Origin: Squalus acanthias
Lineage: Eukaryota
DNA: 64,000 nucleotides
Direction: 5' to 3'
NCBI GenBank assembly: GCA_030390025.1
Contig: JASTWF010000523.1
Location: 186,001 to 250,000, forward strand
The notes below the pieces were generated by a model. It ran no database searches. It saw nothing but the letters and a program-made list of their open reading frames with translations, and was not told where the DNA came from. Below, piece by piece: positions 21,517-44,555 of this stretch (its first letter is position 1; every line of letters starts with the position of its first letter). The position numbers were made by a program, and so were the translations under genes.

Positions 21517-22058
21517 TCAGTGACCTTTAACCCCGCAGATTCCCAGCGGGGCGATGTTTTTCCCGTCGTTATTCAATTCCGGACTGAAGATGGGAAAGAT
21601 TCTCTCAGTGAAAGTGTGGGTGAAAGTGTGGAGTTCGGACATGTTGTTCGCATTGTAAAATATCACCTGTCCGCCCTCATAGTCCAGGTACACCCCGATC
21701 CTCCGGGGCTTCACACTCGGGGTGAGGCGGGTCGGTGGGGAGGTGAAGGCAAGATAGACACTTCCGAGGAACAGCCTCACAATCCAGTATCCGCTCTCAG
21801 GTCTCAGGGCGATAAACCCTTTCCTCTCGGCAGACTCTCGTACCACTCCCAGAATCCACTCAGTCTTGTTCCCCACCTCCACCTCCCAGTAGTGTCTCCC
21901 TGATGTGAATCCCTCCGATCCCAGGACACAGAACCACCGATCAAACCTCTTCGGGGTGTCAGGGACGTCCTGCGGTTTGTCTCCGAGACTCACACTGGTC
22001 CGGTCCTCAGACACGATGAGCTGGGGATTCGCTGTGTCCGGATCCAGAGTCACTGTAA
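21517..22058 (-). CDS. BTN-like terminal exon: B30.2 (PRY-SPRY) domain
   Basis: [14 protein letters not shown]...[25 protein letters not shown]...[10 protein letters not shown]; acceptor TTTTTATTGCAG; stop at 21517. Confidence 0.95.
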
Positions 22059-43000: not shown

Positions 43001-44555
43001 AAACCATAAATGATTCAAACAGTATCAGAACTGGGGGCAAGCACAAAATAGGAAATATTCCAAATGATCATTTCCTTGAAGTATTCATAAGGGAAAATGA
43101 TCAACATTCTCTCCCCCCACCCCCCGAACTAAATGGCTAAAAACAGTAGACGACAAGTCAGAGGAAGCCACGATCAAACTGCACGGTGCTCTGGTCAGAG
43201 CCCACCTTGAATACTGTGTCCAGTTCTGGCCATTGAGAAACAAGGGAGACATTTGAACACTGGAGGCAGATCGGAGAAGATCCACCAGACTCATCCCCAG
43301 TGTCAGGGTTCTGAGTGACGGGAAAAGACTGGAGAAACCTGGGATTTGCACCTGGAAAGGAGGCTTCTGAGAGGTGACCTTGTCGAGGTAGATATAGGTA
43401 GTTAAAGGAACGGAAAAGGTAAAGCTGAAATATTACTTTAAATTGTGAGAGTGGGACAAGTGAACACAGGTTCAAACTAGTAAAAGGTAAATGTGAGACT
43501 GGTAACAGCCAGTTCATCAAACAAAGAGTGATCAACACATGGAATGGACTCTGGACAGAGCGGGGGAGGAGAAAACCCTGGAGAGGTTTAAGAAACAATT
43601 GGAGGCCCAATGGGGGAAGTTAGGGTCTTTCTAGTTAAAATAAAATGGGCCGAACGGCCTTCCTCATCTGTAATTGTCTTGTGATCCAGGGAGGGGGAGG
43701 AGGGAATCTCAGGCCATGAGATAAAGTGTTGGTCCAGAGTCCCAGTGACACGTTCTACAGTGAATCTACACCCACAGTGAGCACTGTACAGATTGAGATG
43801 TAGAAGATCCCCAGTGTTCCCGAGACTGATTGTTCAGAATGAGAGTGAATGGATCGAGCATGGTTTCATTCCCTCCACAATCCAATCACAATACGGAACA
43901 TTAACTCCATGTACTCAAACTGAAGCAGCAATAACAGTTAAGAATCAATGTTAGTATTCTAAGTTTATAAATTAATTAAAAAGACATTTTACACGGGGAT
44001 GTAAATTTCTGAATAATTTTTGGTGACTATATTCAAAGATTCAGTTCTCTGTATCAATACCTACCGGCTACTGTTAGTTCAGCATCTCCTGCATGTCCCC
44101 AGGAACTGGAGCTCACGATGCATTTGTATTTACCCTCATCGGAGATACGGATGTTGCTTAGACGGACAGAGATATTTCCCTGATCGAATTTGTCCATAAA
44201 GAGCTCAGTCCTTCCACGGTAGTAGCTCGACCTTCCACGACTGCGTCCATTTATAACTAAAACTACAGTTTCTCGGTTATCTGCTTTTAACCATTCCAGT
44301 TCCATACTCGGAGGGTCAAAGCTCGGTGTGACCCGACAGTTCAGTGTGACGCTACTACCCACGGCCACTAGTACTGGGCTGTCTGCACCGGTCACTTTGA
44401 AGTCTCCTGTAACTGAAGAATGAATAGCATTTAAATACTGTCACAGCACACATTATACAGACAATCCAGACTTCATGCCTTTAATCCAGTCTCTTACCTG
44501 CTGCTGTAATCTGAATCTGTAACAATAGGAATGACGCCAGTAAGCGATTCTCCAT
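21517..44555 (-). CDS. Butyrophilin-like (BTN/BTNL-type) gene, spliced CDS: 44555-44498, 44406-44065, 39823-39539, 39390-39241, [candidate 38841-38774, 36270-36246], 26242-26216, 25679-25653, 22058-21517
   Basis: Seven core exons, all with AG/GT boundaries and phase-1 junctions, total 1431 nt (476 aa + stop) with no internal stop. Domain order leader-IgV-IgC-TM-27-nt exons-B30.2 is the butyrophilin architecture. Confidence 0.9.
22152..24224. repeat. 72-bp minisatellite (some 70-bp units), about 29 copies, in the last BTN intron
   Basis: Period 72; internal palindromes ACCTGCAGGT and CCGGTCCGGACCGG. Confidence 0.95.
24585..24617 (-). ncRNA. Minimal hammerhead ribozyme motif (- arm; sense to the BTN pre-mRNA)
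   Basis: Exact reverse complement of 24981-25013. Confidence 0.72.
24981..25013 (+). ncRNA. Minimal hammerhead ribozyme motif (+ arm of palindrome)
   Basis: CTGACGA-A-GGAGC(GATA)GCTCC-GAAAGCTTGTA. Confidence 0.72.
25653..25679 (-). CDS. BTN-like 27-nt exon preceding B30.2 (EREEITMFA)
   Basis: CTGTTTTTCAG acceptor, CAG|GTAAGA donor, phase 1-1; splices to give ...FAVTVTLDP. Confidence 0.82.
26216..26242 (-). CDS. BTN-like 27-nt cytoplasmic heptad-type exon (xLQKQLEDS)
   Basis: TTCTCTTCCAG acceptor, CAG|GTAAGA donor, phase 1-1, coiled-coil-like sequence. Confidence 0.82.
26420..27385 (+). mobile_element. L2 LINE 3' fragment with an internal 36-bp tandem expansion (26710-27105)
   Basis: L2 motifs (RPDYSN, HITP...LHWLP, GRAFS...LWNSLP); tail TATAAATACAAGTTGTTG. 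Confidence 0.85.
27765..29285 (-). mobile_element. Family-B LINE, degenerate RT
   Basis: [29 protein letters not shown] motifs. Confidence 0.88.
29460..30146 (+). mobile_element. CR1 5'UTR + ORF1 fragment (zinc finger, leucine zipper, start of esterase)
   Basis: CTSCAMW...[19 protein letters not shown]...VIVVGDSI. Confidence 0.82.
30147..30280 (+). mobile_element. tRNA-derived SINE head
   Basis: GGTAGCGTCGTGG A box and GAGTTCAAATCCC B box; similar decayed heads at about 36495-36580 (+) and 40320-40460 (-). Confidence 0.65.
30285..30655 (+). mobile_element. CR1 3' fragment
   Basis: [21 protein letters not shown] motifs and 3' tail. Confidence 0.8.
31458..31814 (-). mobile_element. PIF/Harbinger (HARBI1-like) DDE transposase remnant
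   Basis: [40 protein letters not shown]...LHNL matches the Harbinger nuclease C-terminal motif. Confidence 0.78.
32255..34266 (-). mobile_element. Family-B LINE, degenerate
   Basis: [30 protein letters not shown] motifs; (ATGA)n tail. Confidence 0.88.
34268..35945 (+). mobile_element. CR1 (+) interrupted by a minus-strand CR1 3' fragment (34357-35019)
   Basis: Host [11 protein letters not shown] is split; TSD TAAGGT at 34351-34356 and 35020-35025. Confidence 0.88.
36246..36270 (-). CDS. Candidate BTN-like micro-exon (KCTMDKAG)
   Basis: Strong GTAAGT donor, AATTAG acceptor, 25 nt (phase 0-1); complements the 68-nt candidate (93 nt total, no stop). Confidence 0.38.
36612..38585 (+). mobile_element. 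CR1 LINE, 5'-truncated, frameshifted
   Basis: Consecutive RT ORF fragments. Confidence 0.9.
38774..38841 (-). CDS. Candidate BTN-like juxtamembrane exon ([23 protein letters not shown])
   Basis: CACTAG acceptor, GTATGT donor, 68 nt (phase 1-0), open; keeps frame only together with 36270-36246. Confidence 0.4.
39241..39390 (-). CDS. BTN-like exon: transmembrane segment
   Basis: [39 protein letters not shown]...; the 'FFP...W' start is typical of BTN TM exons; acceptor TTTACAG, donor AAG|GTAAC; 150 nt. Confidence 0.88.
39539..39823 (-). CDS. BTN-like exon: IgC domain
   Basis: [12 protein letters not shown]...[16 protein letters not shown]...[11 protein letters not shown]; the CxSxGWYPxPxxxW motif is typical of BTN/B7 C domains; 285 nt, phase 1-1, TTTGTAG acceptor and CAG|GTCAGT donor. 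Confidence 0.93.
40680..42275 (+). mobile_element. CR1 LINE, degenerate, with internal deletion
   Basis: [22 protein letters not shown] motifs and 3' tail. Confidence 0.85.
42750..43685 (+). mobile_element. Old degenerate CR1
   Basis: [17 protein letters not shown] remnant and CR1 3' end. Confidence 0.65.
44065..44406 (-). CDS. BTN-like exon: B7/BTN-family IgV domain
   Basis: [20 protein letters not shown]...MELEW...[34 protein letters not shown]; acceptor TTACAG|GA, donor GCCG|GTAGG; 342 nt, phase 1-1. Confidence 0.93.
44498..44555 (-). CDS. BTN-like exon: signal peptide ([20 protein letters not shown])
   Basis: ATG at 44555 in context CACAATGG, hydrophobic core, phase-1 donor CAG|GTAAGA. 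An acceptor TTTACAG 8 nt upstream of the ATG implies a further 5'UTR exon. Confidence 0.85.

Follow-up and report, generated by a model that had tools for sequence, protein, structure and literature searches.

The closest well-described relatives of the gene analysed here are the mammalian butyrophilins and butyrophilin-like proteins (BTN1A1, BTN2A1, BTN3A1, BTNL3/8) and MOG, which have the same IgV-IgC2-transmembrane-heptad-B30.2 layout and provide the top sequence matches of its IgV and IgC among solved structures. The mammalian ligands that select gamma-delta T cells are few and stable. According to the accessible parts of the respective papers, His351 and basic residues line the B30.2 pocket of BTN3 (PMC10533412), and BTN2A1 and BTNL3 touch the TCR through a C-F-G surface (PMC7348870). 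Butyrophilins have also been described in four cartilaginous fishes, on the MHC chromosome in three of them (accessible text of Marenco et al. 2026, PMC12841164), and shark proteins with the domain order and micro-exon linker of our gene are annotated in NCBI/UniRef as 'butyrophilin subfamily 1 member A1-like' (Heterodontus francisci XP_067865250.1, Pristiophorus japonicus UPI00398ECE75), so that a shark butyrophilin is not in itself new. In the accessible text of PMC12841164 there are no domain-wise trees, TRIM comparison or selection test. Compared with these described genes, the Squalus genome has about 20 near-identical copies, and the new element is a last exon (B30.2 plus 3'UTR) shared with TRIM genes without sharing of the upstream intron.

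Exchange of B30.2 domains has a precedent in zebrafish finTRIM and NLR genes (PMC2657112), and the squamate harbiTRIM locus holds TRIMs, butyrophilins and orphan PRY-SPRY genes together (PMC12262214). In those systems, as in the shark, B30.2 domains have moved or recombined across unrelated receptor families and their loops have diversified; the shark case differs in that a butyrophilin of the cell surface has received the domain, the tract extends with sharp borders into the 3'UTR, and the exchange has apparently been repeated in a second shark lineage. The chicken BG/Tvc region, as far as the accessible part of PMC8813856 goes, is another variable tandem array of butyrophilin relatives; it sits on the MHC chromosome next to a TRIM cluster, and selection acts on the cytoplasmic portion of its proteins, as in the shark family. 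However, BG proteins have one IgV and a long heptad tail without B30.2, whereas the shark family has an IgC, two micro-exons and a B30.2, and the gene is therefore not of the BG type. Lastly, the elasmobranch A33/NF7-type (TRIM39-like) TRIMs, adjacent to the shark family on scaffold C26, resemble it in 3'UTR and variable sites, but our gene lacks RING, B-box and long coiled coil, has a signal peptide, Ig domains and a transmembrane segment, and differs in acceptor site and upstream intron.

The window, that is, the whole stretch of 64,000 nucleotides of Squalus acanthias DNA analysed in this work, contains the following features:

44498..44555, minus strand: coding exon 1, signal peptide, 58 nt (kept at 19/19 paralogous IgV loci)
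44065..44406, minus strand: exon 2, B7/butyrophilin-type IgV, 342 nt (splicing, Pfam, structure comparisons)
39539..39823, minus strand: exon 3, IgC2, 285 nt (family identity 93-100%; joint to the transmembrane exon in contigs)
39241..39390, minus strand: exon 4, stalk, transmembrane helix and first juxtamembrane heptads, 150 nt (hydropathy 2.76; both joints in contigs)
26216..26242, minus strand: micro-exon 1, heptad segment, 27 nt (paralogue conservation; joint to the transmembrane exon in contigs)
25653..25679, minus strand: micro-exon 2, pre-B30.2 linker, 27 nt (paralogue conservation; database models)
21517..22058, minus strand: exon 7, B30.2 (PRY-SPRY) and stop, 542 nt (splicing, Pfam)
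21248..21516, minus strand: 3'UTR block, AATAAA at 21440 (94-97% identity to nine TRIM-type last exons)
22156..24226, no strand: minisatellite in the last intron, 72-nt unit, 29 copies (repeat analysis)
20527..21234, no strand: minisatellite just past the common UTR block, 32-nt unit, 22 copies (repeat analysis)

The window gene is an intact butyrophilin-type membrane protein gene, as the initial annotation had read it, in a probable cartilaginous fish. Its seven minus-strand exons join through six introns, all GT..AG and all phase 1, into a frame of 476 aa with no internal stops, in the order leader-IgV-IgC-TM-heptad-B30.2. Pfam recognises V-set, C2-set_3 (the BTN3A2-like IgC family, E 9e-21), PRY and SPRY in the protein, and gives no match for the transmembrane exon. 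The leader and the two micro-exons, part of the same claim, are also found in the paralogues. Conservation of the 58-nt leader exon at every paralogous IgV locus argues against a chance occurrence, and both 27-nt exons, with AG/GT ends, lie 5' of 15 of the 19 paralogous B30.2 exons in the flank examined, the remaining four having either the second 27-nt exon only (two) or neither (two). An acceptor-like sequence ends 8 bases upstream of the ATG, so the sequence suggests that there may be an extra non-coding exon upstream of the leader exon. Heterodontus francisci XP_067865250.1 aligns over the full length of the protein (72%) with no gaps in the latter, and a Pristiophorus japonicus database protein does so likewise (72%), covering the micro-exon peptides. 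All close named matches are sharks, which supports the assignment to a cartilaginous fish.

In public contigs guessed as RNA (none of those listed is recorded as such), the IgC-TM joint (39539/39390) and the TM-micro-exon 1 joint (39241/26242) are both present in four of four runs from two studies. This support applies at the level of the family, because the IgC and transmembrane exons are near-identical across paralogues. The leader-IgV and IgV-IgC joints are absent among the 15 joints listed, with 833 more beyond them. Thus, of the continuity from transmembrane exon to B30.2 exon assumed in the initial annotation, the step into micro-exon 1 is seen directly, while the micro-exon 2-B30.2 junction has its basis in conservation and database models.

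This gene belongs to a set of about 20 tandem paralogues of recent origin in the Squalus genome (hereafter the family). About one third of them are broken or partial, although 18 of the 21 family-type last exons have an open B30.2 frame. The counts exclude five B30.2 exons that carry early stops or an insertion, 2/20 IgC exons and 4/20 transmembrane exons. Compared with its two tandem neighbours, the window gene is 99.1-99.3% identical in the micro-exon intron and 98.5-99.6% in the UTR, but only 91.8-92.9% in the B30.2 exon. Butyrophilins commonly, though not always, sit on the MHC chromosome. On C26, the scaffold of the paralogues, there are class I alpha-2 exons (30.7-38.4 Mb) and at least six separate butyrophilin-like lineages besides the family; the contig of the window is unplaced. 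All elasmobranch class Ib genes have been placed within the MHC (PMC10751288). Class II alpha, the top class I matches and a TAP-like match fell on other, unplaced contigs and not on C26, and a search for MHC class II beta found no match anywhere.

It is in the last exon that the family meets the TRIM genes. The B30.2 exon of the window gene is 88-90% identical in DNA to those of the adjacent TRIM genes, and the common tract comprises the B30.2 plus about 270 bases of 3'UTR, identity between family and TRIM-type last exons ending 194-269 bases past the stop. With a 227-nt UTR query, 30 matches of at least 194 nt at 94-100% were obtained (40 scored of 43 candidates), all 30 directly 3' of a B30.2 exon, 21 of family type (including the window) and nine of TRIM type; at five of these nine an upstream RING/B-box exon was checked and present. 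UTR distance is 3.4% between family and TRIMs, 2.3% for pairs inside the family and 4.1% for pairs of TRIMs; no fixed differences occur in 190 columns (14 + 8 rows), and B30.2 dS behaves in the same way (0.109, 0.083 and 0.128, respectively; 18 + 19 rows). In contrast, the intron upstream of the B30.2 exon finds matches at 18 family loci and at no TRIM-type locus. Site variability of the B30.2s correlates between the two groups (rho 0.62), and recombination is present (p 0.005). The sharing of exon and 3'UTR likely arose through gene conversion. Among 19 close TRIM-type exons, out of well over 100, there was no single recent donor of the window B30.2 (no tract survives correction for 342 pairs), and its loops have no close match in any sampled gene. 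The B30.2 of this gene is part of the neighbouring TRIM radiation and not of a butyrophilin B30.2 lineage. Neither this origin nor the family of about 20 paralogues had been noticed in the initial annotation. The gene itself is not a TRIM, there being no RING or B-box match in the window or its flanks.

Phylogenies of the two halves of the protein tell different histories. For the B30.2, a quick tree was made of 86 rows and a careful one of 50, after removal of long branches and near-duplicates. In the latter the family is nested in an elasmobranch A33-type TRIM clade (98/94), carpet-shark BTNs group with carpet-shark TRIMs (99/97), and the same occurs for gar BTN with ray-fin TRIMs (99/97) and, in caecilians, for the BTNs with a TRIM of that group (93/94); for gar and caecilians the rows derive from fused gene models labelled by the nearest upstream domain. 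The family members of other sharks also go with TRIMs of their own species, both in Pristiophorus (one member, 84/81) and in Heterodontus (one member, 85/86; 92 in the quick tree and open in one further analysis). A topology that unites all 19 BTN B30.2s in a single clade is rejected (p-AU 1e-36). One that unites only the family B30.2s of three sharks is not (p 0.23), and the data are therefore also compatible with one ancient capture, after which the family converted TRIMs. Unlike the B30.2 tree, the IgV+IgC tree tracks species, with the family and the Heterodontus francisci and Pristiophorus japonicus models in one ectodomain clade (100/100). As the ectodomain groups by lineage and the B30.2 falls among shark TRIMs, the window gene is not a one-to-one orthologue of any mammalian BTN gene.

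Gene models from carpet sharks provide a further case. Another Squalus gene, at 5552k on C26, matches the carpet-shark BTN models in IgV, IgC (63-65%), transmembrane segment and micro-exons, one micro-exon peptide being identical at 10/10 positions. However, its B30.2 is only 48-49% like theirs, which are 86-88% like a carpet-shark TRIM. Constraining the B30.2 of this gene to group with the carpet-shark B30.2s is not rejected (p 0.48), on a long branch. On these sequences the carpet-shark lineage appears to have undergone a second, independent B30.2 swap.

The B30.2 is also the part of the family that changes fastest. Its pN/pS is 1.61 (95% interval 1.23-2.21), compared with 0.90 for IgV and 0.82 for IgC of the same family and 0.94 for the TRIM B30.2. 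A site-model test (M8 versus M8a, custom script) gave 2dlnL 174 and omega 5.4 on 36% of codons, values inflated by the recombination present. The selected sites number 37 of 180, with change concentrated on the ligand face, and include five of the six positions aligned with the BTN3 pocket (p 0.0015). At these six positions the window has W, I, A, L, P and S, where alpaca BTN3, aligned via a paralogue, has His, His, Lys, Arg, Arg and Arg. With none of the six pocket residues kept, the window B30.2 is not a BTN3A1-type phosphoantigen sensor. The equivalent of His351 is B30.2 position 41, W in 17 of 18 sequences, next to a hypervariable position 40. Neither PMC5919976 nor PMC12152872 gave residue numbers for the pocket. 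Compared with mammalian BTNs, then, the shark family is a large young array under positive selection, and the window B30.2 is 53% like rodent BTN1A1 and 80% like local TRIMs.

With moderate confidence, we favour a reading in which this intact, tandemly copied butyrophilin with a TRIM-exchanged B30.2 and 3'UTR is anchored in the membrane as a sensor of cytosolic proteins that vary and probably come from pathogens; the likeness of its B30.2 to the neighbouring TRIM exons, together with fast diversification, points to variable proteins and not to a fixed metabolite. By analogy with BTN biology, the copies would pair through the nearly invariant IgC and a short coiled coil. The fast-changing face of the B30.2 would bind variable cytosolic proteins, probably from pathogens, and binding might either restrict the pathogen directly or alter the ectodomain for a lymphocyte receptor, the gamma-delta TCR being one candidate. 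The ectodomain would have descended vertically, while the specificity module would come from the TRIM array nearby and be renewed by it.

A gamma-delta ligand role, suggested in the initial annotation, is possible and can coexist with a sensor; that the gene is mainly a germline ligand selecting or activating shark gamma-delta T cells through its IgV, in the manner of mammalian BTNL3/BTNL8 and BTN2A1, the history of the B30.2 being incidental, seems to us unlikely. The butyrophilin layout speaks for it, as does a TRG-like locus in the genome, whose 150 kb contain a C exon and 12 V segments, one V family being expanded to seven copies, and which adjoins a STARD3/STARD3NL gene. Selected IgV sites are also scarce on strands C, F and G (1/24) compared with strands A, B, D and E plus the DE helix (7/24; p 0.048, after the fact). 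But squamates without gamma-delta T cells keep butyrophilins (accessible text of PMC12841164), and the butyrophilin-like lineages that share scaffold C26 with the family qualify just as well. Unlike mammalian selecting ligands, moreover, the family is a young, partly broken 20-gene array, and selection on the B30.2 would be left unexplained. A predicted complex between the window IgV and a single V-gamma, taken from the expanded family, scored 0.00 (without alignments or folded controls) and carries no weight either way. Quite unlikely, in our judgement, is a B7-like molecule for co-regulation or adhesion whose partner is not a TCR and whose TRIM-like B30.2 is a non-sensing by-product of passive conversion between the adjoining arrays. 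Conversion between neighbouring repeats requires no function, the broken or partial copies fit this reading, and the IgV and IgC ratios indicate weak constraint; however, conversion from TRIMs at their pN/pS does not yield that of the family, nor would it concentrate change on the ligand face, and most B30.2 frames are open.

The ectodomain bears on another alternative, a shark-specific look-alike in which a non-butyrophilin B7 ectodomain acquired a TRIM last exon separately from true butyrophilins, which we consider very unlikely. The B30.2 is indeed TRIM-derived, and in a fold search of 50 rows, with MOG not among them, the IgV scored highest against B7-H3 (Z 18.8, rmsd 1.4, 108 aligned), above BTN3A1 (17.5) and BTN2A1 (17.4). 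The initial annotation had taken the IgV as butyrophilin-type, and the best IgV+IgC tree favours this moderately (87/84), although grouping with CD276, PD-L1, VTCN1 and two B7-like genes is not rejected (p 0.147). Against the look-alike, per-domain sequence scores are higher for MOG (66 bits) and BTN3 (about 61) than for CD276 (54-57), the IgC belongs to the BTN3A2-like Pfam family, and the 27-nt pre-B30.2 linker resembles those of gar, caecilian and rodent butyrophilins. Distinct CD276, PD-L1 and VTCN1 genes lie on other scaffolds; since the top matches of CD276 (B7-H3), PD-L1 and VTCN1 are these genes on C19, C1 and C5, respectively, the window gene is not their orthologue. That the Ig-TM part and the B30.2 exon belong to different genes, or that the locus is an assembly artefact, we regard as extremely unlikely. 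The last two junctions have no RNA sighting, and the contig is unplaced with three units 95-99% identical; nevertheless, the TM-micro-exon 1 joint, in the same guessed-RNA contigs, spans 13 kb, micro-exons and acceptor are kept ahead of paralogous B30.2 exons, two other sharks have full-length models, the stretch from TM to B30.2 is free of RING exons, and the three copies differ by 7-8% in the B30.2.

The favoured reading, of a butyrophilin with a TRIM-exchanged B30.2, matters beyond this locus, where the cytosolic domain, which in mammalian BTN3A1 forms the metabolite pocket, looks like an interchangeable module taken from antiviral-type TRIM genes. If this is true, whole-protein trees and names like 'BTN1A1-like' mislead, and there is a candidate explanation for butyrophilins being kept in animals without gamma-delta T cells. 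More tentatively, and with considerable doubt, jawed-vertebrate butyrophilins in general may combine a vertical ectodomain with B30.2s taken repeatedly from an adjoining TRIM array, the approximately 20 shark receptors, at the cell surface and equipped with TRIM-type domains for pathogen recognition caught in an arms race, relaying infection to gamma-delta T cells and mammalian phosphoantigen sensing being a late specialisation; the older system would then have sensed pathogen proteins from inside out. About 14 open paralogues that share one protein framework but differ in their binding faces, and V-gamma segments in the same genome make a panel for the question of what was sensed before phosphoantigens.

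As a minor observation, the 72-nt minisatellite of the last intron, with no copies in the TRIM-type loci compared, is present in a few copies at the same site in family paralogues.

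The window holds a seven-exon butyrophilin-type gene, and the layout claimed for it in the initial annotation agrees with our positions. The features of the window discussed here are:

44555–21517 (−): leader, IgV, IgC, transmembrane (TM), two micro-exons and B30.2
22156–24226: minisatellite, 72-base unit
20527–21234: minisatellite, 32-base unit
1670–2212 (+): open, divergent B30.2 exon (Pfam PRY, SPRY), the closing (3′) part of a second type of butyrophilin-like gene that every tandem unit carries
27800–38500 (example): many decayed fragments of LINE-type reverse transcriptase, with simple tandem arrays, fill introns and flanks, nothing unusual in a shark genome

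Every intron is GT..AG and phase 1, the reading frame (476 residues) is stop-free, and Pfam recognizes V-set, a BTN3A2-like IgC family, PRY and SPRY. Public contigs guessed to be RNA (15 joints listed, 833 more unlisted) showed, among the joints listed, exact removal of the IgC–TM intron and of the 13-kb intron that separates TM from micro-exon 1, each in four of four runs from two studies. These are two of the six junctions; the other four do not appear among the joints listed. As IgC, TM, and micro-exon 1 are nearly identical among paralogues, these joints show splicing of the family rather than of the window copy. The junction into the B30.2 is probably genuine, resting on micro-exons and an acceptor conserved in paralogues and on full-length models in Heterodontus and Pristiophorus (72% identical to the window protein and gap-free on the window side). 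The gene is real and intact, as first described, although not novel in kind, since shark butyrophilins are already known: they are reported from four cartilaginous fishes, with expansions particular to each class and persistence where gamma-delta T cells are absent (PMC12841164). What is new is a specificity domain, probably TRIM-derived and exchanged, that is positively selected within a young array.

The window carries the middle one of three tandem units of 66–69 kb each on its contig (G000:C3359, 186001–250000), and the family extends to 0.08–2.6 Mb of scaffold C26, with 19 IgV exons (75–100% identity), 20 IgC exons (93–100%) and 21 matching last exons in the genome. Assembled by positional pairing of exons, 14 of the 21 units have open frames in every exon examined (one with the TM exon shortened in frame), five are interrupted by a stop or a frameshift, and the remaining two are incomplete. 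The TM exon of a neighbour copy on C3359 (156620–156750, minus strand; L043) is cut in frame to 117 bases, with part of the helix end and the juxtamembrane segment gone.

The window B30.2 resembles exons at 2.7–5.2 Mb of C26 (80% protein, 88–90% DNA) as closely as it does its own paralogues. A RING/B-box exon lies upstream in all five of these close exons that were checked, and relatives in the databases carry the names zinc-binding protein A33-like or TRIM39-like. The likeness is sharply bounded on both sides of the last exon: the intron before it has matches at 18 family loci and at no TRIM-type locus, while downstream the 3′UTR is 94–97% identical behind nine TRIM-type exons (C26 2.75–3.03 Mb), the match ending 194–269 bases after the stop codon. 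TRIM-type exons past 3.1 Mb lack this UTR, and no fixed UTR difference separates family (14 rows) from TRIM (8 rows). Family members of Heterodontus and Pristiophorus already have the same B30.2 type, with IgV diverged to 68–69% protein identity, so the closeness of the UTR here to that of the TRIMs would imply at least one later exchange. Against the exchange reading, no single donor tract was significant. The two minisatellites bracket the B30.2 exon and UTR, and at each of the 19 family loci fetched the last intron contains the 72-base unit, which is absent from the TRIM-type loci; that they play a part in recombination is a guess.

In the B30.2 tree (50 of 86 rows, several non-shark rows being fused gene models) the family is nested in an elasmobranch TRIM clade (98/94), and butyrophilins of carpet sharks, gar, and caecilians each group with the TRIMs of their own lineage. 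Descent of all 19 butyrophilin B30.2s as a single clade was rejected (p 1e-36); one clade of family B30.2 across three sharks was not (p 0.23), which, like the fused models, counts against the exchange reading. An apparent second swap is suggested by another butyrophilin-like gene, G000:C26:5552126–5578201, whose ectodomain, TM, and micro-exons match carpet-shark models P0127, P0129, and P0112: it keeps a divergent B30.2, whereas the carpet-shark models (three species) end in a TRIM-type one, the two measured being 86–88% like a carpet-shark TRIM and 48–49% like the B30.2 of the C26 gene. Against this, a tree holding these B30.2s together was not rejected by the AU test (p 0.48).

The pN/pS of the family B30.2 (18 exons) was 1.61 (1.23–2.21), compared to 0.94 in TRIM-type B30.2 (19 exons), 0.90 in IgV, 0.82 in IgC, and 0.57 in TM. 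In a site model (custom script), 36% of B30.2 codons had an omega of 5.4 and 23% of IgV codons one of 3.9, values that recombination found in the data inflates, the pairwise ratio being less affected. Compared with the neighbouring tandem copies, the window gene is 99% identical in micro-exon intron and UTR but 92–93% in the B30.2 exon. Five of the six BTN3 pocket positions fall among the selected B30.2 sites (p 0.0015), and the window has W, I, A, L, P, and S there (aligned to alpaca BTN3 via a paralogue). His351 and a basic pocket are described for BTN3, and in other B30.2 domains the same surface binds proteins (PMC10533412). The protein is unlikely to sense phosphoantigens as BTN3A1 does. 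Selected IgV sites avoid strands C, F, and G, reported as the TCR-binding face in mammals (PMC7348870): 1/24 residues there, versus 7/24 on strands A, B, D, and E and the DE helix (p 0.048, post hoc).

By architecture the gene is filed as a butyrophilin; descent of its ectodomain from butyrophilins has moderate support. Compared domain by domain in sequence, IgV is closest to MOG and BTN3 (CD276 next) and IgC to BTN3A2, and the IgV+IgC tree (29 rows) joins the family with shark, ray-fin, amphibian, and rodent butyrophilins (87/84), keeping genes of each lineage together. The alternative grouping with CD276, PD-L1, VTCN1, and two other B7-like genes of this genome was not rejected (p 0.147), and the predicted IgV fold places B7-H3 (Z 18.8) slightly ahead of BTN3A1 (17.5).

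The Ig–SPRY pairing has been dated to jawed vertebrates (PMC11788884). B30.2 domains have been described as shuffled between finTRIM and NLR genes (PMC2657112), and at a squamate locus with TRIMs and butyrophilins PRY-SPRY domains recombine with one another (PMC12262214); chicken BG and Tvc are also covered (PMC8813856). TRIM–butyrophilin B30.2 exchange or selection in sharks was not found in the literature covered (mostly titles and abstracts, subscription journals thinly). Fish receptor families with B30.2 were reportedly surveyed in 2022, and that survey may include part of these findings.

The family most likely encodes a type I membrane protein, whose copies may, by analogy with BTN biology, pair via the near-invariant IgC and a short coiled coil. 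Its fast-changing TRIM-type B30.2 face would bind variable ligands in the cytosol, probably proteins of pathogens. The result could be direct restriction of the kind reported for human BTN3A3 and avian influenza, or signalling from the inside out to a lymphocyte. The window gene may also be a gamma-delta ligand, in keeping with the distribution of selected IgV sites given above and with a TRG-like locus in this genome. Identified by synteny and recombination signals, this locus adjoins a STARD3/STARD3NL gene at G000:C8:145100001–145250000 (L186–L200), with a C exon and 12 V segments, bearing recombination signals, of about six families (one with seven near-identical copies) in the 150 kb read; it may extend further.

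C26 carries at least six further butyrophilin-like lineages (at 18k, 1567k, 5406k, 5485k, 5552k, and 6.0–7.6 Mb), one amplified to well over ten copies; in all four that were checked the B30.2 is divergent and of its own kind, and those present once are candidate conserved gamma-delta ligands. Upstream of the B30.2 exon at 1670–2212 (+), a search of the window's unit found no IgC or TM exon to match it. Another gene type with IgC, TM, and divergent B30.2 (G000:C26:939047–957396, minus strand; L126–L128) lies head to head with a family member, no IgV being found within the preceding 4 kb. Similar IgC hits stand opposite at least four other family members, and this type is possibly a partner chain.

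MHC class I alpha-2 exons at 30.7–38.4 Mb make C26 likely the MHC chromosome, all elasmobranch class Ib genes having been placed in the MHC (PMC10751288); the core MHC genes of this genome, however, are on unplaced contigs, which leaves the family–MHC linkage inferred. Class I exons are interspersed with another B30.2 exon group (62–68% to that of the window) at C26 30.7–38.4 Mb and on C812, C1054, C2252, and C99.
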